From assembly GCF_044324875.1 (NCBI RefSeq), contig NZ_CP172185.1: 64,000 nt of DNA. One strand, 5' to 3'. Below the pieces are notes generated by a model. The model was given only the letters and a program-made list of their open reading frames with translations. It was not told the DNA's origin and ran no database searches. The position numbers were made by a program, and so were the translations under genes. The stretch is from Escherichia coli. GTDB taxonomy: Bacteria; Pseudomonadota; Gammaproteobacteria; Enterobacterales; Enterobacteriaceae. Of the stretch, positions 9,278 through 51,496 are shown in pieces (position 1 is the stretch's first letter; each line of letters starts with the position of its first letter).

Positions 9278-10051
9278 TCATAATTGCCATTTTAAATGCA
9301 GGCCTAATTGCAGCCCATTGAAATTATGGTTCGGTGTTTTATACCAAACTTTACCTGCCGTCAGCCCGAGATTAAGTTGCTCAGTCAGCGGTTGAATACG
9401 TTGTAAACTGACGCTCTTCATGCTGCCGTATCGTGTTTCTGGCGTCCAGTCATAGGTGTAAGCACCTGTTCCGCGGCTTAGCCATAGTTGTGTATAACCA
9501 GCACCGCGCGGGTCCTTCAGACGCACGGAAATCATATTGCTGTAACTACCAGCTGCATCGCTGGAGTCATAATGGGTATAGCGGTAGCTGGTGATCACCG
9601 GGCCAGTATAGAGAGATACGCCGCCTTGCCAGGCATCGACTTCGACATCATCGTAATATTTAGTGTAGCGATAACCGGTCGTGAAAAGCGTTTTTGGCAA
9701 CAGGGCCAGGTTAATATCCTGACGAAAATCCTGACGGGCAAAGACCGGCGTATTATCCGCAAAGGCAATACCCGTTCGGGTTGTCAGCCAGTTATTCCAT
9801 TTGTACCAGACTGCACCCTGGCCGCGAGTGGCATTGAAATGTTCAGTTTCATAATCACGACGCCCCTGGGAAAGATTAAAAAGCAGCGTTGCGTTTTCAA
9901 CTTTTGCCACCAGTTCAGCATAAGCTAAATTACGGTTGCCATGGTCGCCAGAATAATCGGTAAAATCGTAGCCCGTGGTAATGGAAGTTAACCCGGCATA
10001 AGCGGGCAATGCACTAAAAAAAAACGGCATTAATAACGTATGCTTTATCAT
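9278..10051 (-). CDS. yaiO: YaiO-family outer-membrane beta-barrel protein
   Basis: 257 aa, signal peptide, alternating aromatic/Tyr-rich strands, C-terminal …GLHLKWQL; closely resembles E. coli YaiO as recalled. Confidence 0.7.
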   Translation of the reverse strand: MIKHTLLMPFFFSALPAYAGLTSITTGYDFTDYSGDHGNRNLAYAELVAKVENATLLFNLSQGRRDYETEHFNATRGQGAVWYKWNNWLTTRTGIAFADNTPVFARQDFRQDINLALLPKTLFTTGYRYTKYYDDVEVDAWQGGVSLYTGPVITSYRYTHYDSSDAAGSYSNMISVRLKDPRGAGYTQLWLSRGTGAYTYDWTPETRYGSMKSVSLQRIQPLTEQLNLGLTAGKVWYKTPNHNFNGLQLGLHLKWQL

Positions 10052-10052
10052 T

Positions 10053-10763
10053 TTAATCTCCTGTACGGATAAGTTCTTGTCGGAGTGAGTAAGTTCCGGT
10101 AGGTAAATTACGTTCTACAATCACGCGCGGGCCAAGTTGCGTGTTCGGGGAAATAATTCGCCCGGGCAAAATAATAACCTGTACGCCAAGGCGTGAACGC
10201 TGCCCGATATAACAACCTAATTTATCGCATCCGGTAGCGATAATTCCATCTGGCGTTCGAACAGACACGGGCTGTTCATCCAGACGATGATTACTGGTAC
10301 GTACTTGTGCGCCCAGATATGCCTGGTTTGCAACTACCGAGTCGGCAACAAAGCATTGCGGACCAATCGTTGCTTCCGTTTCAATAACCGCATTTTTAAT
10401 TTCGGTGGCAAAACCAATTTTTACGCCATTGCTGATTATTGTGCCAGGACGAATAAACGCATAATTACCTATCAGGCAGTTTGCGCCAATCACTACCGGC
10501 CCCTGAATAACGGCACCGTGGCAAATACGGGTATTCGCGCCGATAACAACTTCACCTGCACTTTCATCAATAATTACCTGGTCTGCAATCTGAGTATTTT
10601 TCTCTTTAACATTAAGCTCCAGATAGTTTTTCAGTTTCTGTGACAGAAGGTTGGGAATAAGCGGTTGACGTTTCCACCAGTGCGGAATAGCGGGTGGGTT
10701 TGTCGCGCTGAGGTTCGCGTCCAGTAAAAAAGGCAATAAGTCCATAAATAATCCAGATGGCAT
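10053..10763 (-). CDS. yaiX: Hexapeptide-repeat (left-handed beta-helix) acyltransferase, YaiX-like; true start probably downstream of 10763
   Basis: Repeated [LIV]-G-x-x-x-x-I hexapeptide pattern (…VIGANTRICHGAVIQGPVVIGANCLIGNYAFIRPGTIISNGVKIG…). The ORF as drawn overlaps the upstream gene by about 150 nt. Confidence 0.65.
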   Translation of the reverse strand: MPSGLFMDLLPFLLDANLSATNPPAIPHWWKRQPLIPNLLSQKLKNYLELNVKEKNTQIADQVIIDESAGEVVIGANTRICHGAVIQGPVVIGANCLIGNYAFIRPGTIISNGVKIGFATEIKNAVIETEATIGPQCFVADSVVANQAYLGAQVRTSNHRLDEQPVSVRTPDGIIATGCDKLGCYIGQRSRLGVQVIILPGRIISPNTQLGPRVIVERNLPTGTYSLRQELIRTGD

Positions 10764-11808
10764 AAGCTAATAATACATACACAACGGAAAGCGGAGCTAA
10801 AGGTACCAACAACCAGCAACGATGAAACCAGGCGCTAAAAGTACCAATAACACAAACTATGCCGACCCAGATAAGCGGGAACATTGCCATCACCACACCA
10901 TGTGGCCCGGTGGTGATGAATTCATTAAACCAGGTAGTGAGATAAATCCCAACGCCATAAAGCACAACCAGCAGCATAGGAAATATACTGAAGATACCGA
11001 AGCGGCTAAATAAAAGTCTTTTATGCAGGCGCATACAGACCGCGTAGCCCACAATCCAGCGCCGCCAGCGACGCCACTCCTCACGAAGGCTGTTGCATTC
11101 CTGTGGGTATACGATACAGCGATTCACCTGCCGAATACGGTAACCATTGGCGACCAATGTCCAGGTGAGATCGAGATCTTCAACTTTGGTACGGTCCGAA
11201 AAACCGAATTTACGCAGCACATCGGTACGGAACATCCCGCAGGCACCGCTGATAATAAACGGTGCACCACCCAGGAACTGCTGTAGCGTACGCTTCATAG
11301 CAATCATCGGCAACTTTACGGTGGCGCGGATATGTGGCAGCAGACCTGCCCCTTTTAACGCGGTGGAGGGAATTCCGCCAACGGCATCAGCGCCGCGCTC
11401 AATTTCTGCCAGCATATAGCCCATTCCATCACTGTCAGGTGGAACGAAAGTATCTGCATCACTTAAAAATACTTGATCACACGTGGCGTATTTTATTCCA
11501 TGCATTAGTGCGCCACCTTTACCGGTGTTTTTTTGCGTGACGGCAACAAAGCGGTCGCCCCATTTGCGTTTGACTTCCGCCATGACCGCTTCGGTATTGT
11601 CCGTGGAGCCGTCGTTAACGCAAATTACCCGGCAAAAATAAGGGTTACGCAGCAGATTATCCAGTGACTGCGCCAGACACGGGCCTTCGTTATAAGCAGG
11701 TATAATGACGTCAATACAGCCTTTCTTTTGACTGGGTTTACGTCTTAGCGTACTTAAAAACCATAGCAACATTACTATGGACATACAGATAAATATCCAA
11801 GTCTTCAT
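10612..11808 (-). CDS. yaiP: Family-2 glycosyltransferase (YaiP-like), membrane-anchored
   Basis: 398 aa; N-terminal TM, then …VIIPAYNEGPCLAQSL…VNDGSTDNT… (GT-A fold DxD-type motifs) and C-terminal TM helices. Confidence 0.75.
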   Translation of the reverse strand: MKTWIFICMSIVMLLWFLSTLRRKPSQKKGCIDVIIPAYNEGPCLAQSLDNLLRNPYFCRVICVNDGSTDNTEAVMAEVKRKWGDRFVAVTQKNTGKGGALMHGIKYATCDQVFLSDADTFVPPDSDGMGYMLAEIERGADAVGGIPSTALKGAGLLPHIRATVKLPMIAMKRTLQQFLGGAPFIISGACGMFRTDVLRKFGFSDRTKVEDLDLTWTLVANGYRIRQVNRCIVYPQECNSLREEWRRWRRWIVGYAVCMRLHKRLLFSRFGIFSIFPMLLVVLYGVGIYLTTWFNEFITTGPHGVVMAMFPLIWVGIVCVIGTFSAWFHRCWLLVPLAPLSVVYVLLAYAIWIIYGLIAFFTGREPQRDKPTRYSALVETSTAYSQPSVTETEKLSGA

Positions 11809-11821
11809 TTATGAAATCCAG

Positions 11822-12475
11822 TCATAACACCATTTTGTATATAATAAAACCTTCGCACATAGCGCAGTTTGCCTGTTGCCCTCTGAAACTGGCCTGACTA
11901 TGTAAATATTCATGTTGCATATATTTACGTTGACTCTGGCTTTTATGCTCTTTCAATGCCATTAATTTTTTATTAAATTCATTCTGCTCTATTGCTTCAA
12001 AAGCATGAGGGGAAAATGAAATCCATGCACTTGGTGTTTCATATCCCAGTATCTGAGGAATATAACGACAGGCAACCATTGATGCCTGATAAACAGCAAT
12101 ATGATCCTGATGCCTGTCAGAATTATTCATGGTATAAACTCTCGTAATTTCGACATCCTGAGGGATATCATTAGCAATTATATTTTCCAGGGAAGATATC
12201 ATGTCTCTTATCTGTAAATAAAGACGGGTATCCTCAAAATTAAGATGAATTGACTTGTCACATCCCAGTATTTTTAATGCTTTCTGTGACTCTTTATGAC
12301 GGTCAGTATCTTTTCCCCCACAACAACCGGGGGTCATAACTACCGCGATAGTATATATATTTCTGGCAGAAAAAGTTGCAAGAGATGCACCACATCCTAA
12401 TTCTATGTCATCAGGATGTGCACCTATTGCCAGTACACCTGTTCTCTTTCCTGAATATGTGATAGAATTTAACAA
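11822..12475 (-). CDS. yaiS: PIG-L/LmbE-family deacetylase (YaiS-like)
   Basis: 217 aa with …AHPDDIELGCG… and …HQDH… zinc-binding signature of LmbE-type N-acetylglucosaminyl deacetylases. Confidence 0.75.
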   Translation of the reverse strand: MLNSITYSGKRTGVLAIGAHPDDIELGCGASLATFSARNIYTIAVVMTPGCCGGKDTDRHKESQKALKILGCDKSIHLNFEDTRLYLQIRDMISSLENIIANDIPQDVEITRVYTMNNSDRHQDHIAVYQASMVACRYIPQILGYETPSAWISFSPHAFEAIEQNEFNKKLMALKEHKSQSQRKYMQHEYLHSQASFRGQQANCAMCEGFIIYKMVL

Positions 12476-13407
12476 GATACCTTCCTTATCTACTTCCTGT
12501 TATATGCTTCTCCCCATTATAAATATTACCATTGTATTAATTTCAAATTAACTAATTAACTTTCTCAGATGATGCCTGACATCAGTAATACACTGATTCT
12601 ATCTTGTAGTGAGGACTTTTAGCACCAGTTCACTGAGCTCATGCTTAACTGCATCATGGAATCTGATGTCAGCTGGCCTGTGACAGGAAAATTATCGAAC
12701 CGGAAAAGTAAAGTGGAACTGAATTCACACTGAAGGAGATATTTCGATTCACAGCATGCTGGCTCAAGGTTTGTTGAATAAATAGAACTTTTGGGTAACT
12801 GGAGGAGCTGAGCGCAACCGTAGCTTACACCGGCTCCCCATGGCAAAGTTAAATTTTAAACTCACCAGACAAGTCGCACACAGCCAGGTACTGCTGACCG
12901 AAATGAAACCGTCTTTTATGATCTGGTCGGCAGGATAGCGTCCTTCGTCAGAAATACTGGTATGTATTGCTCCGGCTCAGAGATTTAACTTCAGATACGG
13001 CAAACAATTGCTGGAAATTGTTGCGTAAGTCGTTGACTGAATTGAATATTTACTTAATCCAGAGAGTGCAGAAGAAAGTCATTTAGCGCAATATGAAGAC
13101 TTTATCGCAGCATGGCCCCCGTTTTGTGAAGCCTGGGGATCGTCCGTTATTACTGATGACGCTTATCGTACCGTTCCATGTTCTGGTCTCAGGTCCGGAC
13201 AGCCTGTTCCGTGCAATTTTCGATGAGCAGGGCATTCCTGCCTGGCTGGGGGAAACAAAATGCCGGAGCACGACAGCCGTCAGAATCGATCGTCTGGCAG
13301 GTATAAAGATATTGATGTTCTCTGTTTTGATCACGATAACAGAAAAGACATGGATGCGCTAATGGCAAGCCCGCTGTGGCAGGCTGCCCGCGTTCTGGAC
13401 AAAACCA

Positions 13408-13917
13408 TTGGATGCAAAGCGTGAGTATACGAATTGCGCTTTTCCCCGCGTCATTGCCGCGTTTTCTGTCGCCGTCATGCTTGCTCTGGTTGTATGCGTA
13501 GTCTGGCAAGTATTTAGCCGCTACGTACTTAACCAGCCAAGTACATTAACCGATGAGCTGGCACGCTTTTTGATGATCTGGGTAGGATTATTAGGTGCTG
13601 CATATACCGTCGGCGCGCAGAGACATCTCTCTATCGATTTATTTGCTCTCGCCCTGAATAAGCGCAAGCAATTACTTCTTAGTATAGTCATTAACATTCT
13701 CATTTTAGGTTTTGCCGGTTCGGTCATTGTGACTGGTGGCCTGAAATTAATTGATAAAACACTGACAACATCACAGGTATCTGCCGCGATGCAAATACCG
13801 ATGGGATACGTATATATCATTCTGCCATTAAGTGGATTGGTGATGATGTTTTATGCCTTGTGTTTTATTAATCAAAGCATTCAACAACTGAAACAACCTG
13901 CGCAGGAGGCCAGTTAA
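13408..13917 (+). CDS. TRAP transporter small permease (DctQ-like)
   Basis: 169 aa, four hydrophobic helices; directly followed by the large permease with overlapping stop/start. Confidence 0.7.
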   Translation: MDAKREYTNCAFPRVIAAFSVAVMLALVVCVVWQVFSRYVLNQPSTLTDELARFLMIWVGLLGAAYTVGAQRHLSIDLFALALNKRKQLLLSIVINILILGFAGSVIVTGGLKLIDKTLTTSQVSAAMQIPMGYVYIILPLSGLVMMFYALCFINQSIQQLKQPAQEAS

Positions 13918-15218
13918 TGGATAGTTATATCGCGCTTACACTGTTTGGCTGTTTTTTTGTGCTGGTCTTTATTGGTGTGCCCATTTCGTTCTCAATCGGT
14001 ATTGCCACTGTAGCTTCAATGCTGTTGATGTTTCCCTGGGATATCGCGGCAATCACTGTTTCGCAGCGACTGGCTAATGGACTGGATAACTTTGCCCTGT
14101 TGGCAATCCCCTTTTTCATCTTTGCCGGAACGCTGATGAACAGCGGCGGTATTGCGATACGTTTGATTAACCTCGCCCAGGTAATGGTTGGCCGCGTTCC
14201 TGGTTCGCTTGGTCATGTGAACGTCCTGGCGAATATGATGTTTGGTTCCATTTCTGGTTCAGCCGTTGCGGCAGCTGCTGCCGTTGGTGGCACACTGAAT
14301 CCCATTCAGACCAAAGAAGGTTATGATCCGGCATTTTCTACCGCTGTAAACGTCTCATCCTGTATTACTGGATTACTGATACCGCCCTCAAACGTGTTAA
14401 TTGTATTTTCCCTGACAGCTGGCGGCGTTTCTGTAGCATCGCTATTTATGGCGGGATATTTGCCAGGGATCTTAATGGGTCTCGCGGTAATGATAGTCTG
14501 CGGCATTATTGCTAAACGCCGTGGCTACCCACTTTCAGAAAAAGCAACCTTTGCTCAGGCATGTAAAGCGTTTCTGGATGCCTTACCAAGTTTGCTTCTG
14601 GTGTTCATTGTAATGGGCGGCATTCTGGGCGGCATTTTTACCGCAGCTGAAGCGTCAGCAATTGCCGTGGTCTACACATTTATTCTCTCGGTGCTGATTT
14701 ACCGGGAAGTAAAATGGCGCGATTTACCCAAACTGATTCTGGAATCGGTTGTTACCACTTCGATTGTATTACTGTTGATCGGTTTTTCCGTGGGCATGTC
14801 CTGGGCAATGACCAATGCTGATATTCCTTATATGATCAGCGACGCGTTGATGGGGATTTCTGATAACCCACTGGTCATATTGCTGCTGATTAATATCGTC
14901 TTATTAATTGTCGGCATCTTTATGGACATGACACCGGCTGTACTAATCTTCACACCAATCTTCTTGCCGATTGCACAAGAGCTGGGAATGGATCCGGTAC
15001 ATTTCGGTATTATGATGGTGGCCAACCTTTGTATTGGGCTGTTAACACCGCCGGTGGGTAGTGCGCTATTTGTTGGTTGTTCTATTTCAGGTGTGAAGAT
15101 TCAACATTTGCTTAGACCATTGCTACCCTTTTATACAGCATTGCTAGTCGCATTGATGATGATCACTTACATTCCACAAATCTCTTTATTTATCCCACAA
15201 TTTCTAGGGCTGATGTAA
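13917..15218 (+). CDS. TRAP transporter large permease (DctM-like)
   Basis: 433 aa polytopic membrane protein, MDSYIALTLFGCFFVLVFIGVPISFSIGIAT…; no cognate binding-protein gene in the window. Confidence 0.8.
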   Translation: MDSYIALTLFGCFFVLVFIGVPISFSIGIATVASMLLMFPWDIAAITVSQRLANGLDNFALLAIPFFIFAGTLMNSGGIAIRLINLAQVMVGRVPGSLGHVNVLANMMFGSISGSAVAAAAAVGGTLNPIQTKEGYDPAFSTAVNVSSCITGLLIPPSNVLIVFSLTAGGVSVASLFMAGYLPGILMGLAVMIVCGIIAKRRGYPLSEKATFAQACKAFLDALPSLLLVFIVMGGILGGIFTAAEASAIAVVYTFILSVLIYREVKWRDLPKLILESVVTTSIVLLLIGFSVGMSWAMTNADIPYMISDALMGISDNPLVILLLINIVLLIVGIFMDMTPAVLIFTPIFLPIAQELGMDPVHFGIMMVANLCIGLLTPPVGSALFVGCSISGVKIQHLLRPLLPFYTALLVALMMITYIPQISLFIPQFLGLM

Positions 15219-15356
15219 ATAATTAATAGCCGGACAATTTTTATTGTCCGGTAAAATTCATCGTAAGCGCTCCTTCTGTGCCGTCTTGTGGTGGTTGTCC
15301 TGTCTGGCAACAATCGCGTCCATCTATTGATGGACACGAACGATGTGGATTTGCCC

Positions 15357-16262
15357 CTATATATCCAGACATCTGTTATCACTTAACCCATTACAGGCCC
15401 GCTGCCGCAGATATTCCCGTGGCGAGCGATAACCCAGTGCACTATGCGGATGCCATTCGTTATAATGCTCGAACGCCTCTGCAAGGTTCTTTGCTGCCGT
15501 TAACCCGTCTGGTTTGGGCATGACACTGATGTAGTCACGCTTTATCGTTTTCACGAAGCTCTCTGCTATGCCGTTACTCTCCGGACTCCGCACCGCCGTG
15601 TTCTTCGGTTCAAGCCCCAACATCCGGGCAAACTGCCGTGTTTCATTAGCCCGGTAGCATGAACCATTATCCGTCAGCCACTCTACTGGAGACGCCGGAA
15701 GCTCGTTGCCGAAGCGGCGTTCCACCGCTCCCAGCATGACGTCCTGTACTGTTTCACTGTTGAAGCCGCCCGTAGTGACCGCCCAGTGCAGTGCCTCACG
15801 GTCACAGCAGTCCAGCGCGAACGTGACTCGCAGTTTTTCTCCGTTATCACAGCGGAACTCGAACCCGTCAGAGCACCATCGCTGATTACTTTCTTTCACA
15901 GCCACTCTGCCGGTATGTGCCCGTTTCGATGGCGGTACAGCGGTTTTTCGCTCAAGCAACAGCGCATTCTGGCGCATGATCCGGTAAATACGTTTGGCAT
16001 TGATCGCAGGCATACCATCAAGTTCTGTTTGTCTGCGAAGCAGCGCCCATATCCGACGATAACCATATGTGGGTAGCTCTCCGATAACATGGTGTATACG
16101 GCGAAGCACATCCGTATCATCCGTGTGACGGCTGCGGCGTCCGTCCTTCCAGTCATCGGCTCGTCTGAGAATTACGTGCAACTGCGCACGCGACACCCGG
16201 AGACAACGGCTGACGAAGCTTACTCCCCATCCCCGGGCAATAAGGGCGCGTGCGCTATCCAC
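15357..16262 (-). CDS. insD: IS2 InsD (OrfB transposase)
   Basis: 301 aa, [34 protein letters not shown]… with DDE core. Confidence 0.9.
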
Positions 16263-16630
16263 TTTTTTGCTCGCCCATATTCAACGGCTTCTTTAAGGAG
16301 TTCATTTTCCATCGTTTTTTTGCCGAGCAGACGCTGGAGTTCTTTAATCTGCTTCATGGCGGCAGCAAGTTCAGAGGCAGGAACGACCTGTTCTCCGGCA
16401 GCCACAGCAGTAAGACTTCCCTCCTGGTATTGCTTACGCCAGAGAAATAGCTGGCTGGCTGCCACACCATGTTGCCGGGCAACAAGGGAGACCGTCATTC
16501 CCGGTTCAAAACTCTGCTGAACAATAGCGATCTTTTCCTGTGTAGTACGCCGTCTGCGTTTCTCCGGTCCTAAGACATCAATCATCTGCTCTCCAATGAC
16601 TAGTCTAAAAACTAGTATTAAGACTATCAC
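16220..16630 (-). CDS. insC: IS2 InsC (OrfA)
   Basis: 136 aa, [56 protein letters not shown]…. Confidence 0.9.
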
Positions 16631-17482
16631 TTATTTAAGTGATATTGGTTGTCTGGAGATTCATGGGGCCAGTCTACTCCCGCATTAAAATATACTGTTC
16701 TTTCCGGATAATTACGTTAAAATAGACACCTGCGTGCATCTGTGTCAGACTCCGTTAGATACCAGCGTACATTGTAAACATGCCGGATGCACGCAATACA
16801 ATAATCGGTCTTTTCGGAGTTATAGTCACCAGGCTGGCATCCCGTAAATATGTATCAGGTAGCAATTCAGGAAGCGAACAAAAGCGCCTGGAGAAGGTTA
16901 TCTCTGATAATAATTTACATGAAATGTCTCCTTTATTCTTCGCGAATAAGGCCTTCAGTGTTCTCCCCTTTTCAGCAATTCTTACCGTAGTAATCACTCC
17001 TGCCTGTGTATAACACGAGAATTGCCAGAGTTTAACGTTTCGGTATCGTTATCCTGCATGATGTTGAACAGAACCGGGCGTGAATTCTGCGCCAGAATTT
17101 TCTTTCGAGGAACATTCCGGGTTATCTGTAGTACAGGAGGAGATTTTCTCCTATTTCAAATAAAATTCAATGACAGGTGAATATTTAAATATAAATGCAT
17201 CGCTTCAACAGAGAAATCGGAATTACGCCCGGAACCAGGTCTGAATGAATAATGGAGGAGGAAAAATAATATTATTGATGAAAATATCAAATCAAGTCCC
17301 CCTTCTCCTTCCCCAGCTTAAATATACTTACTTTTTCACTGGATAATATGTTATTGAATTACAAAGTTGATCCTGATATACATGATTTCCGGCTCTTGCA
17401 TCCAGTGATAACTTTATATACTCCTGCAAAGGCGAACTTCGTAAAAGTATACTTTTCTGTTGTAAGCATTGAGGTATCGAAT

Positions 17483-17707
17483 ATGAGTGAGAATACCGGA
17501 AAATCCCATGAAAATAAAATGGTTATTATTGACTGCGGGGAATATGATGAATACCTTCGTAACGCGTGGTTCCGAGGTTTTCGGGAAGGTTATGATATGG
17601 CGATGAAATTTGGATTAGGCTGCCAGCAATGTTATGAAACAGGTGAAAAAATAGCATGCGCAAGAGCTGAAGAATGCCGTAAAAAGATTAAGGTAATAAA
17701 ACACTGA
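17483..17707 (+). CDS. Small Cys-containing hypothetical protein (74 aa)
   Basis: ATG at 17483 preceded by GAGGT; MSENTGKSHENKMVIIDCGEYDEYLRNAWFRGFREGYDMAMKFGLGCQQCYETGEKIACARAEECRKKIKVIKH. The longer ORF-track start at 17348 lacks a ribosome-binding site. Confidence 0.4.
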   Translation: MSENTGKSHENKMVIIDCGEYDEYLRNAWFRGFREGYDMAMKFGLGCQQCYETGEKIACARAEECRKKIKVIKH

Positions 17708-17835
17708 AACGGGCTGTCTGATATTTCTGTGAGCTAAAAAGACACCGTAATACAGGTATCTCACAGTAACTGAAAGATATGCACATGCAGCCAGGGAAGA
17801 TTAAGGGTAAGGGAGGATATCCCTTACCTGATTGA

Positions 17836-18360
17836 TTATGGGATGATACCACAGGCAATTCTTGCACCACCGCCACCTAGAGGTTCAGGATGGTCATCAT
17901 GATTATCACCTCCTGCGTGGAGCATTAGCGAACGGCCATCGAGCTCCTTTAATTCAGATAGTCTTGGCGCAAGCACCGGGTAGGTTGCTTTTCCGTCATG
18001 AGTGACATAAAGCGCAGGGAGATCACCCAGGTGGCCATCAGGAGACCATGGACCGAGATGCTTCCCTGTTTTTTCCGGGTCAAAGTGACCACCTGCAGAT
18101 AAAGCAGCGACAGTTTTTCCATCTTTCAGGGCAGGAGCACAACTTGCGTTTTCATGTACATGAAAACCATGAATGCCGGCGGGTAAGGAGTGAAGATCAG
18201 GGGTGAACAGCAGCCCGTAGGGTGTCTTCTGGATGGTTATTTTACCAATATTTCGCTCTTTTCCGTCACTATCAACAAGATTCATTGTTACATCTTTGGT
18301 GGCTGCATATCCACAGGATGATGTAGCCAGAATCACAAAGGCAATAAGTTTACGTTTCAT
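17836..18360 (-). CDS. sodC: Periplasmic Cu/Zn superoxide dismutase (SodC paralogue)
   Basis: 174 aa with signal peptide; metal-ligand motifs …[10 protein letters not shown]… and …GGHFDPE…, …HLGDLPAL…, …[12 protein letters not shown]…. Confidence 0.85.
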
Positions 18361-18455
18361 AAACCCTCTGTTAACAGGTTAAAGATTTACTCAATAACTG
18401 TTGCGAAATAACAGTCAGCCAGATTTCAGGGGGATGGCTGTGCGCGAAATGAAGC

Positions 18456-19535
18456 TTACTGCATCATGACCTCACGAACGAAATCTTTTTTGAGCTGTGT
18501 ACTGTACGCTTTGCCATAAAACTCCACCGTGGGCTCCGGGATCTCATTCAGATCCGGACGGAGCTGTTTGTTCATCGGCGTGGAGCCGAAGACTTTACTC
18601 AGTGCATGTTGCGTTTCAGGCTGAATCAGCCAGTTGAGGAATAAGCGTGATGCCGCCGGATGTGGGCTGTTGGCGGCAATGGCAGCGATGTTACCGCCGC
18701 CAGGCATGCCAAACTCCGGTACGTAAAATTTCAGCCGCGAATTGATAGCCCCGGTTTTTTGTAGTCCGACAAGATGATCTTCCCAGGATGGTGTCAGCAT
18801 CAGCTCGCCGTCATTCAGGCGTGTCAGACTATCAGCACCGGAGGCCGTGCGGGTAATTTTGTCCTTATTAGCGGCAAACCACTGCCAGCCTTTCTGCCAG
18901 TTTTTCACCACTGCCGGGTCAACGCTCTCCGCTTCGCTGTTAAACGTGTCGCCCTGAGTAGTGACGATGCGCTGGATAAAGGCTTCCCCAGCGCCGCCGT
19001 TGTTCGGGTCGTTATAGCCGAACTTTTTCGGGTTGGCGTCGATAAAGCTCTGCAACTGCTCCAGCGTTTGTGGCAGCGCCCGGTCACCCATCTGCTGCGG
19101 GTCGTAAGCAAATCCGGTCTGGTTGCCCCAGAACGCCACGGCATAACCCTGGGTGTCAACGTTCTGAATCTGGTGAATGGCGTCGCCATAGCCCGGCAAA
19201 TCGTCCACCTTCGCCAGCGCTTTCGCTCCCATTGCCACTGGCAGTTGCGCAACAGACAAGGCGATAACATCTATTTTACCTTTTTTTTTCCCCGCTTCTG
19301 CCAGCAACTTGTTCACGTTTCCGTCGATATTCCCTTCCGGGATGCGCACCTTAACACCGTACTGCTGCTCAAAATCCTTCACAAAGCTGCGCCACTGCGG
19401 CTGTAAGTACCAGACGTTAAAGGTCACGCTGCCCTCTTTTTTCGCTTGGGCAATCAGGTCGGGGCTATCCGCCGCCGTTGCCAGCGAGCTGCACAGCAGG
19501 CCGCCCGCCAGAATCATCACTGTTTTTTTCATCAC
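18456..19535 (-). CDS. ABC transporter periplasmic substrate-binding protein (PotD/PotF-type)
   Basis: 359 aa, signal peptide, last gene of a four-gene ABC operon on the minus strand. Confidence 0.75.
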   Translation of the reverse strand: MMKKTVMILAGGLLCSSLATAADSPDLIAQAKKEGSVTFNVWYLQPQWRSFVKDFEQQYGVKVRIPEGNIDGNVNKLLAEAGKKKGKIDVIALSVAQLPVAMGAKALAKVDDLPGYGDAIHQIQNVDTQGYAVAFWGNQTGFAYDPQQMGDRALPQTLEQLQSFIDANPKKFGYNDPNNGGAGEAFIQRIVTTQGDTFNSEAESVDPAVVKNWQKGWQWFAANKDKITRTASGADSLTRLNDGELMLTPSWEDHLVGLQKTGAINSRLKFYVPEFGMPGGGNIAAIAANSPHPAASRLFLNWLIQPETQHALSKVFGSTPMNKQLRPDLNEIPEPTVEFYGKAYSTQLKKDFVREVMMQ

Positions 19536-50064: not shown

Positions 50065-50160
50065 AACCGATATTCCTTTTTGCAGATAAATGAAAACGCC
50101 AGCCCTGTTCAGGCTAGACTGGCCCCCTGAATCTCCAGACAACCAGTATCACTTAAATAA

Positions 50161-50571
50161 GTGATAGTCTTAATACTAGTTTTTAGACTAGTCATTGGAG
50201 AACAGATGATTGATGTCTTAGGGCCGGAGAAACGCAGACGGCGTACCACACAGGAAAAGATCGCAATTGTTCAGCAGAGCTTTGAACCGGGGATGACGGT
50301 CTCCCTCGTTGCCCGGCAACATGGTGTAGCAGCCAGCCAGTTATTTCTCTGGCGTAAGCAATACCAGGAAGGAAGTCTTACTGCTGTCGCCGCCGGAGAA
50401 CAGGTTGTTCCTGCCTCTGAACTTGCTGCCGCCATGAAGCAGATTAAAGAACTCCAGCGCCTGCTCGGCAAGAAAACGATGGAAAATGAACTCCTCAAAG
50501 AAGCCGTTGAATATGGACGGGCAAAAAAGTGGATAGCGCACGCGCCCTTATTGCCCGGGGATGGGGAGTAA
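50161..50571 (+). CDS. insC: IS2 InsC
   Basis: 136 aa, identical in length and nearly identical in sequence to copy 1. Confidence 0.9.
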
Positions 50572-51434
50572 GCTTAGTCAGCCGTTGTCTCCGGGTGTCG
50601 CGTGCGCAGTTGCACGTCATTCTCAGACGAACCGATGACTGGATGGATGGCCGCCGCAGTCGTCACACTGATGATACGGATGTGCTTCTCCGTATACACC
50701 ATGTTATCGGAGAGCTGCCAACGTATGGTTATCGTCGGGTATGGGCGCTGCTTCGCAGACAGGCAGAACTTGATGGTATGCCTGCGATCAATGCCAAACG
50801 TGTTTACCGGATCATGCGCCAGAATGCGCTGTTGCTTGAGCGAAAACCTGCTGTACCGCCATCGAAACGGGCACATACAGGCAGAGTGGCCGTGAAAGAA
50901 AGCAATCAGCGATGGTGCTCTGACGGGTTCGAGTTCTGCTGTGATAACGGAGAGAGACTGCGTGTCACGTTCGCGCTGGACTGCTGTGATCGTGAGGCAC
51001 TGCACTGGGCGGTCACTACCGGCGGCTTCAACAGTGAAACAGTACAGGACGTAATGCCAGGAGCGGTGGAACGCCGCTTCGGCAACGATCTTCCGTCGTC
51101 TCCAGTGGAGTGGCTGACGGATAATGGTTCATGCTACCGGGCTAATGAAACACGCCAGTTCGCCCGGATGTTGGGACTTGAACCGAAGAACACGGCGGTG
51201 CGGAGTCCGGAGAGTAACGGAATAGCAGAGAGCTTCGTGAAAACGATAAAGCGTGACTACATCAGTATCATGCCCAAACCAGACGGGTTAACGGCAGCAA
51301 AGAACCTTGCAGAGGCGTTCGAGCATTATAACGAATGGCATCCGCATAGTGCGCTGGGTTATCGCTCGCCACGGGAATATCTGCGGCAGCGGGCTTGTAA
51401 TGGGTTAAGTGATAACAGATGTCTGGAAATATAG
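50529..51434 (+). CDS. insD: IS2 InsD
   Basis: 301 aa DDE transposase. Confidence 0.9.
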
Positions 51435-51496
51435 GGGCAAATCCACAGGCTGGCGTCAGGTTAATGAATCGTGGTGAGTGAGATGATGAGTGAAAC

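Follow-up and report, generated by a model that had tools for sequence, protein, structure and literature searches.

TRAP transport is a binding-protein-dependent, ion-gradient-driven uptake. The analyzed 64-kb stretch of Escherichia coli DNA (hereinafter, the window) contains a pair of TRAP permease genes but no gene for a binding protein. The pair abuts an IS2 copy that lacks a target duplication, and the sequence-only reading of this region proposed that an IS2-mediated event removed the binding-protein gene together with neighboring DNA. Comparison with related genomes points to a different history. With a probability of roughly 0.85, the pair is a truncated and displaced copy of the common dctPQM operon that lost dctP from its 5' side independently of any IS, the IS2 insertion being a separate event, and the remaining genes are likely non-functional.

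The permease genes and their upstream junction

The dctQ-like gene (13408-13917, plus strand; 169 amino acids from a TTG start) encodes a small TRAP permease that matches positions 1-129 of the 132 positions of PF04290 in a profile search (106 bits). It overlaps the dctM-like gene (13917-15218, plus strand; 433 amino acids), which encodes a large 12-helix permease matching all 413 positions of PF06808 (402 bits) and scoring 471 bits against TIGR00786, for which the cutoff is 268. Both genes were initially described as intact, and both frames are indeed open, but the first 13 codons of dctQ are not native. The reported lack of a DctP-type gene is borne out: when the 64 kb were searched by tblastn for the cognate DctP, the best E-value was 2.6, dctP DNA produced no match in the window, and no cognate DctP-type or TAXI gene lies beside the permease genes. 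The 2,3-diketo-L-gulonate transporter YiaMNO of E. coli K-12 belongs to the same family; however, the scores of the window pair against the NCBIfam models for YiaN (296 bits) and YiaM (38 bits) are far under the equivalog cutoffs (800 and 260, respectively), which places the pair in a different TRAP subfamily, and the yiaO-type binding protein of that system is absent in the window.

The gene order is dctP-dctQ-dctM in all complete versions of the operon that we observed (LH50-c, ECCNB12-2, NCTC86 and others), and therefore dctP originally preceded dctQ and lay on the opposite side of the pair from IS2. Among 5426 complete E. coli genomes, 1460 have the complete operon (defined by at least 80% coverage), in most cases located between hemW and yggM as in NCTC86, and this operon may be the hypothetical TRAP transporter listed for strain BEN2908 (PMC12928451). 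The window copy shares with it the gene overlap and the hairpin that follows dctM but lacks dctP and the promoter region as well as dctQ codons 1-11, and is located in a mosaic island (selC-associated in ECCNB12-2, the closest relative) rather than at the usual hemW-yggM site. From dctQ codon 12 onwards, dctQM is 97-99% identical to the complete-operon DNA, with 56 differences in 1810 nt from NCTC86 and 10 nt differences from the LH50-c island copy, the latter being too few for pN/pS inference of selection. The hairpin (CCGGACAATTTTTATTGTCCGG, 15230-15251, plus strand, detected by scan and alignment) appears terminator-like only on the minus strand in the scan, with the tail CTATTAATTA. Homology to the native hemW-yggM locus stops shortly after it, at about 15255, as indicated by alignment of the downstream region and by the extent of NCTC86-type matches.

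Upstream of dctQ, a fhuD-like pseudogene fragment (12890-13424, plus strand), identified by blastn to K-12 fhuD and three-frame translation, adjoins a yaiOXPS-like gene cluster. This fragment begins at the equivalent of fhuD nucleotide 270 and extends to the natural TGA (13422-13424); it is disrupted by frameshifts and internal stops, and 85 bp are deleted from its interior. The PGAP annotation of ECCNB12-2 and TUM9803 denotes it a FhuD/TroA pseudogene. Alignment to the K-12 fhuD/fhuB overlap identifies the first ~37 nt of a fhuB-like gene (13421-13457, plus strand) whose GTG start, like that of fhuB in K-12, overlaps the stop codon of fhuD, and whose frame differs from that of dctQ. The blastn identity to the K-12 fhuD region is 80% over 12890-13384 and 87% over 13389-13457. 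The possibility that the fhuD-like gene supplies an unusual binding partner was considered and rejected: it is a frameshifted, internally deleted ABC-type fragment that is followed by its own fhuB start, and it represents a binding-protein class unrelated to DctP.

The foreign DctQ residues 1-13 result from reading this fhuD-3'/fhuB-5' remnant in another frame. Of the native dctQ, the start codon is lost together with codons 1-11, and the TTG at 13408, which is not preceded by a Shine-Dalgarno sequence, is the only upstream start. The foreign residues are N-terminal to the Pfam domain, the match to which begins at residue 27; as we read the sequence, the first hydrophobic stretch likewise begins only after them.

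A three-way alignment of the window, the LH50-c complete operon and the K-12 fhu region maps the junction to 13446-13457 (plus strand), where a microhomology of ~11-12 nt (CGCGTCATTGC) can be aligned with fhuB (9 of 11 positions match in K-12) as well as with native dctQ codons 12-15. Homology to complete operons begins at 13446, that is, at dctQ codon 12, and the ~1460 genomes match only from the corresponding query position 201. Thus, dctP and dctQ codons 1-11 are lost at this point, at the 5' side of the pair and not at the IS2 side, and no IS sequence is present at the 13446 junction. The fhuB'::dctQ junction is found in 15 of the 5426 complete genomes, an unfused fhuD' fragment is absent from this collection, and the junction 26-mer has no matches in a scan of one genome per species. 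Illegitimate recombination without IS involvement would account for this arrangement: it probably removed dctP and dctQ codons 1-11, joined codon 12 to the initial ~26-37 nt of the fhuB-like gene via a microhomology of ~11 nt, and yielded a chimeric dctQ frame that has lost its native promoter along with the ribosome-binding site and the start codon, leaving dctM unchanged.

Decay and possible function of the orphan pair

TRAP permeases require a binding protein, and DctQ is essential (reviewed in PMC5812351). Given that no cognate binding protein is encoded in cis, the pair most likely is a non-functional remnant heading to loss. Because neither frame in the window carries a disabling mutation, the decay is manifest in losses among relatives and not in the window copy itself. 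In 11 of the 13 junction carriers seen individually (15 carriers in total; 3 of those with the cut were examined in detail), dctQ is cut at 13780, and in most of the complete-genome carriers seen, dctM and the 3' third of dctQ are already deleted. Only two complete genomes without dctP combine an intact dctQM pair with the IS66'-IS2 junction.

Judging from sequence features, the pair could alternatively be a working permease, an extra membrane unit that would use DctP from a complete paralogous operon, although we consider this unlikely. Both frames are open and conserved (no differences among the window, ECCNB12-2, TUM9803 and several of the draft assemblies); the proteins differ little from their paralogs, with a single amino acid difference in DctQ residues 14-169 from the complete-operon DctQ and two differences between DctM and its counterpart in the LH50-c complete operon; dctM has its own upstream AGGAGG; and 140 indexed blocks of public assemblies contain the chimeric DctQ, which could fold if made. 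Moreover, supply in trans is conceivable: ECCNB12-2 encodes a full dctPQM operon near pepT, 870 kb from the orphan copy, and the DctP encoded there is 100% identical to that of LH50-c. These features are to be weighed against the loss of the native expression signals of dctQ, for which only the TTG without a Shine-Dalgarno sequence would substitute, against promoter-like sites that occur at chance frequency (the counts in promoter and terminator scans are no different from those in shuffled sequences), and against the truncation at 13780 and absence of dctM in most carriers. In addition, dctM is frameshifted in 3 assemblies, possibly due to sequencing errors, and the 10 nt that differ from the complete copy are too few for a test of selection.

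It is similarly improbable that the orphan pair is not inert in a broader sense, either as such an extra membrane unit fed by the paralogous DctP or as a 1.8-kb stretch of homology that promotes large-scale rearrangement of the chromosome. In the draft assembly L019 (GCA_044159985.1), the island copy is connected through a crossover inside dctM with the native yggM-ansB side, an arrangement that, by K-12 map positions, would amount to an inversion of ~0.7 Mb.

IS2 copy 1 and the rearrangement downstream of dctM

IS2 copy 1 (15346-16676, minus strand; 1331 bp, with orfA and orfB open) aligns end to end with IS2A of K-12, with 57 mismatches (4.3% divergence), and so its termini are not mis-delimited; the caveat that a duplication might be hidden by wrongly placed ends is thereby eliminated, and the flanks, CGATG (15341-15345) and CTCCC (16677-16681), do differ as originally noted. 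The same holds for the description of copy 2 (50115-51445, plus strand), a canonical element with 4 mismatches to IS2A that is flanked by CAGGC on both sides (50110-50114 and 51446-51450), a 5-bp duplication; ECCNB12-2 has no IS2 at the corresponding site. Both copies share with IS2A, a member of the IS3 family, the 1331-bp length, the terminal repeats and the orfA/orfB arrangement, each with an orfA 121 codons long and an open stretch of 307 codons, and PGAP annotates an intact transposase with programmed frameshift in the IS2 copy of ECCNB12-2. Unlike the usual IS2, copy 1 lacks the 5-bp duplication and has flanks that come from two different modules. A search for chimeric structure in copy 1 found 57-61 differences from canonical IS2, evenly distributed. 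A third IS2 sequence, taken at first for a terminal remnant at 25128-25203, is indeed IS2-derived but spans 25119-25203 (plus strand) and includes both ends, and thus is an internally deleted mini-IS2 of 85 bp, with an IRL matching at 22 of 22 positions, a 21-nt spacer and a diverged IRR, flanked by GCGGT and AGGAA without a duplication.

To the left of copy 1 lies an IS66-family left-end remnant (15263-15345, plus strand) that extends from GTAAGCG to the tnpA ATG, directly after which IS2 interrupts the gene; the remnant shows 83.5% identity to the corresponding end of a complete IS66-like element (LH50-c, L004 1877-1961). The IRL end of copy 1 is joined directly to the start of a sodC module (16677-18360) that consists of a small hypothetical gene and sodC (17836-18360, minus strand). 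In other islands, the sodC module is preceded by an IS3-family fragment ending in ...CCGCTCATGCAA, and in 50EVA-type islands, the CTCCC site is located ~17 kb downstream of dctQ' in unchanged orientation. Among the complete genomes, only ECCNB12-2 has the IS2|CTCCC junction; TUM9803 shares the left IS2 junction with the window, but its IS2 is truncated and the right side is different. Hence an IS2-associated rearrangement at this place is real inasmuch as copy 1, without a duplication, connects two unrelated modules.

This event appears to be separate from the loss of dctP: IS2 is located in the first codon of the IS66-family tnpA, 3' of the operon, and its other end became joined to the sodC module, probably either by IS2-IS2 recombination or by a transposase-mediated adjacent rearrangement, altering the DNA to the right of the operon but not the operon itself. 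Synthetic junction queries against the 5426 complete genomes detected neither IS2 with CTCCC on the IRR side at this site nor IS2 with CGATG and the IS66 sequence on the IRL side, and an apparent match to a parental junction in CFT073 proved to be a spurious 23-nt extension. The expectation that a flank of copy 1 would recur on the far side of another IS2 thus fails both in the window and in this collection; such an absence is still compatible with IS2-IS2 recombination, and with neither a parental junction nor a reciprocal product found, both mechanisms stand.

The wider setting is a complex one. In ECCNB12-2, the region belongs to an island that ends at tRNA-Sec with an integrase and includes many IS elements and sugar-uptake genes; no tRNA gene is present in the 64-kb window. 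By description, the island is similar to the mosaic selC-associated islands of avian and extraintestinal E. coli, among which AGI-3 of BEN2908 is the described example, cited in PMC3349570 and PMC12928451. ECCNB12-2 retains an MgtC-LysR module after the S6 peptidase gene, and accordingly, in a comparison of the window, ECCNB12-2, TUM9803 and 50EVA, a single simple deletion does not explain the present order.

Conceivably, IS2 copy 1 inserted normally and one flank was altered later without involvement of IS2, for example, by IS66- or IS3-family activity, given that both flanks lie in or beside other IS elements and that IS1414, IS66-family and IS21 elements abound in the island. We consider this quite unlikely since the breakpoints coincide to the base with the IRL and IRR termini, as is the outcome of events driven by IS2 or by IS2 homology, and three different IS2 or IS2-like junctions occur within a span of 11 bp at the IS66 tnpA start. 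As for the removal of dctP by IS2, through an adjacent deletion or recombination between two copies, the position of the duplication-free copy 1 next to the operon and the recurrence of such junctions in the island family (for example, in Ch1 at 13780) would be consistent with it, but it is extremely improbable considering that dctP precedes dctQ in all complete versions whereas IS2 follows dctM, that the 13446 breakpoint shows fhuB microhomology and no IS2 sequence, that the examined carriers of the fhuB'::dctQ junction, strains 144 and 50EVA among them, lack an IS2 adjoining the TRAP remnant, and that LH50-c retains dctP with an IS2 located 11 bp from the site of copy 1.

Implications for annotation

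The dctQM remnant is a case of ordinary island decay, and its importance beyond annotation is small. When TRAP permease genes occur in E. coli islands as a pair with no binding-protein gene, they are to be read as a remnant of the widespread dctPQM operon and should not be taken for a binding-protein-independent transporter, and the small permease that PGAP annotates here as intact is chimeric at its N-terminus. The region also offers a compact example of how missing target duplications, together with comparison to relatives, separate two neighboring, independent rearrangements.

The dctQ-dctM pair and its missing partner

The small permease gene dctQ (13408-13917; PF04290, 106 bits) and the large permease gene dctM (13917-15218; PF06808, 402 bits; TIGR00786, 471 bits, cutoff 268) stand without a binding-protein gene, as the sequence-only reading held: tblastn with the cognate DctP as query found no match in the 64-kb window. 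Two of the three gene-level hallmarks of the TRAP family are present among the window genes and the third is missing. The pair is not YiaMN. A complete operon, in which a 329-aa DctP (PF03480, TIGR00787) precedes DctQ and DctM, is found in strain LH50-c and, with a coverage of at least 80%, in 1460 complete E. coli genomes out of 5426; in NCTC86 it is located between hemW and yggM, and strain ECCNB12-2 carries a full copy, 100% identical to that of LH50-c, at another chromosomal site.

The window pair differs from the LH50-c operon by 10 nt and contains no disabling mutation; promoter-like sites do not exceed chance frequency. Because a TRAP permease requires its binding protein and cannot do without DctQ (PMC5812351), the pair is best read as a probable recent remnant in which mutations have yet to accumulate; that it functions with DctP provided in trans is a minority possibility.

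A microhomology junction at codon 12 of dctQ

Homology to the complete operons starts at 13446, codon 12 of dctQ. Upstream lie two pieces of an fhu-like operon: a fhuD-like pseudogene (12890-13384; 80% identity to nt 270-770 of K-12 fhuD), disrupted by frameshifts and stop codons and lacking 85 bp internally, and a segment (13389-13457) in which the fhuD 3' end runs into the initial 37 nt of fhuB across the overlapping GTGA stop/start. In the alignment, 13446-13457 (CGCGTCATTGC) matches both parents, fhuB-like and dctQ, which makes the join a microhomology junction; it contains no IS sequence. The annotated dctQ start is a TTG within the fhuD 3' end that adds 13 foreign codons before native dctQ; the native N-terminus MIFNRLKLAVD is missing, and the fhuB GTG is not in the dctQ reading frame. 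An IS2-mediated adjacent deletion, or recombination between IS2 copies, had been proposed to have removed the binding-protein gene. An IS2 rearrangement did occur, to the right of the operon, but given the junction at 13446 it was not IS2 that removed dctP.

Of the 5426 complete genomes, 15 carry the fused junction, and none has the fhuD fragment in unfused form. Among the carriers listed, dctQ is cut at 13780 in 11, as confirmed in Ch1, 144 and 50EVA. In Ch1 (L003 10782-12112), an IS2 lies precisely at this truncation point, which most carriers share, flanked by GGTAT and TTTCC without a duplication; the deletion junction of 144 and 50EVA is the same except that the IS2 is missing, a difference of 1332 bp. 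The whole pair, with the downstream IS66-IS2 junction and no dctP, occurs only in ECCNB12-2 and TUM9803 among complete genomes. Single-base frameshifts in dctM in three draft assemblies, two of them within homopolymer runs, may be sequencing errors.

IS2 copies and the rearrangement to the right

IS2 copy 1 (15346-16676; 1331 bp) aligns over its entire length, both termini included, with IS2A as annotated in K-12, so that the mismatch of its flanks, CGATG and CTCCC, is genuine, as are the matching CAGGC flanks of copy 2 (50115-51445). The terminal remnant reported at 25128-25203 does derive from IS2 but retains both ends and spans 25119-25203 (85 bp: a perfect 22-nt left end, 21 nt and a diverged right end, with no flanking duplication); judged by this structure, it is an internally deleted IS2, akin to a miniature element.

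To the left of copy 1, the dctM stop is followed by a hairpin (15230-15251), reported by the terminator scan on the minus strand only, and, from 15263, by the left end of an IS66-family element (GTAAGCG... to the tnpA ATG) that IS2 cuts just past the ATG. IS2 lies 11 bp deeper into tnpA in LH50-c (L004 11892-11911), and at a separate junction 7 bp in, the full operon copy of ECCNB12-2 passes into IS2-like internal sequence. The start of tnpA thus shows three distinct IS2 or IS2-like junctions within 11 bp (after the ATG, ATGAATTCTC and ATGAATTCTCAGAC; window 15337-15345, L004 11892-11911 and L010 ~13180-13190), which suggests recurrent IS2 events or nibbling at a single site. TUM9803 shares the left IS2 junction seen in the window; its IS2 breaks off at nt 426, after which come an ISEc23 piece and an MgtC module.

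On the right, CTCCC begins a sodC module. In AR13438 an IS2 flanked by a regular CCGCT duplication lies 12 bp to the left of this site; the site is uninterrupted in 702/18, HCM-22C-2 and 50EVA, where CCGCTCATGCAA runs straight into CTCCC behind an IS3-family fragment. In 50EVA-type islands the truncated dctQ precedes the site by ~17 kb, both having the same orientation, with an MgtC-to-LysR module between. Among complete genomes, only ECCNB12-2 has the IS2-CTCCC junction. IS2 copy 1 thus marks a rearrangement, associated with IS2, that affected the DNA on the right-hand side of the operon, through either IS2-IS2 recombination or a transposase-mediated event. The evidence favours neither: the junction search of 5426 complete genomes found no parental or reciprocal IS2 junctions, the divergence of copy 1 is spread evenly, and ECCNB12-2 retains the MgtC-LysR module downstream of its S6 peptidase gene. 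Compared with the ECCNB12-2 copy (L001 16347-17677), copy 1 shows 12 differences, clustered at nt 300-500 and 1000-1200, and the adjoining dctQM is identical in both strains, a pattern resembling gene conversion among IS2 copies.

The island and its exchanges

The window is of E. coli origin, and one complete genome, that of the chicken strain ECCNB12-2 (NZ_CP033635.1), matches positions 11000-19000 over their full length at 99.7% identity. The counterpart region lies in an IS-rich island with tRNA-Sec and an integrase at its end; no tRNA genes are found within the 64-kb window. The YaiO, acetyltransferase, glycosyltransferase and PIG-L genes at 9278-12475 represent a second, diverged version of the K-12 yaiO-yaiX-yaiP-yaiS cluster (95.4% identity at 9308-10468 and 85.4% at 10463-12448); native E. 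coli alleles all show at most 89.5% identity, which suggests a donor beyond ordinary E. coli diversity. The K-12 yaiX is itself interrupted by IS2A. The same island encodes an S6-family serine-protease autotransporter of 1274 aa (27908-31732), downstream of an AbgT-family transporter gene. Nested IS66-family (ISCro1-like) and IS21-family (ISSso4-like) elements occupy 32135-38836, where ECCNB12-2 has ISEc23 and the MgtC-nucleoside hydrolase-LacI-MFS...LysR module, of which the window keeps only the final 38 bp (38799-38836).

In one assembly (L024, GCA_044149075.1, 1-7334, equivalent to 9308-14741), frmB-frmA-frmR (98% to K-12) adjoin island-type yaiO...yaiS, the fhuD fragment and dctQM, the contig ending within dctM, so that at least one assembly has the module at the native frm-yaiO locus or recombined with it. 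In a draft assembly (L019, GCA_044159985.1, DBAHPG010000082.1 4229-7102, equivalent to 13408-15218), island genes and a chimeric dctQ continue via dctM directly into yggM-ansB-yggN. Counted from 13446, its dctQM follows the window allele as far as ~nt 914 and a native-locus allele from ~nt 959, which implies a crossover of the orphan copy with the native operon, although the join could be an assembly chimera. If the crossover is true, it would entail an inversion of ~0.7 Mb, judged by the orientation of the K-12 map. Truncated operons and IS copies devoid of duplications are routine in mosaic islands; the events in the window are all of already known kinds and stay within known mechanisms.
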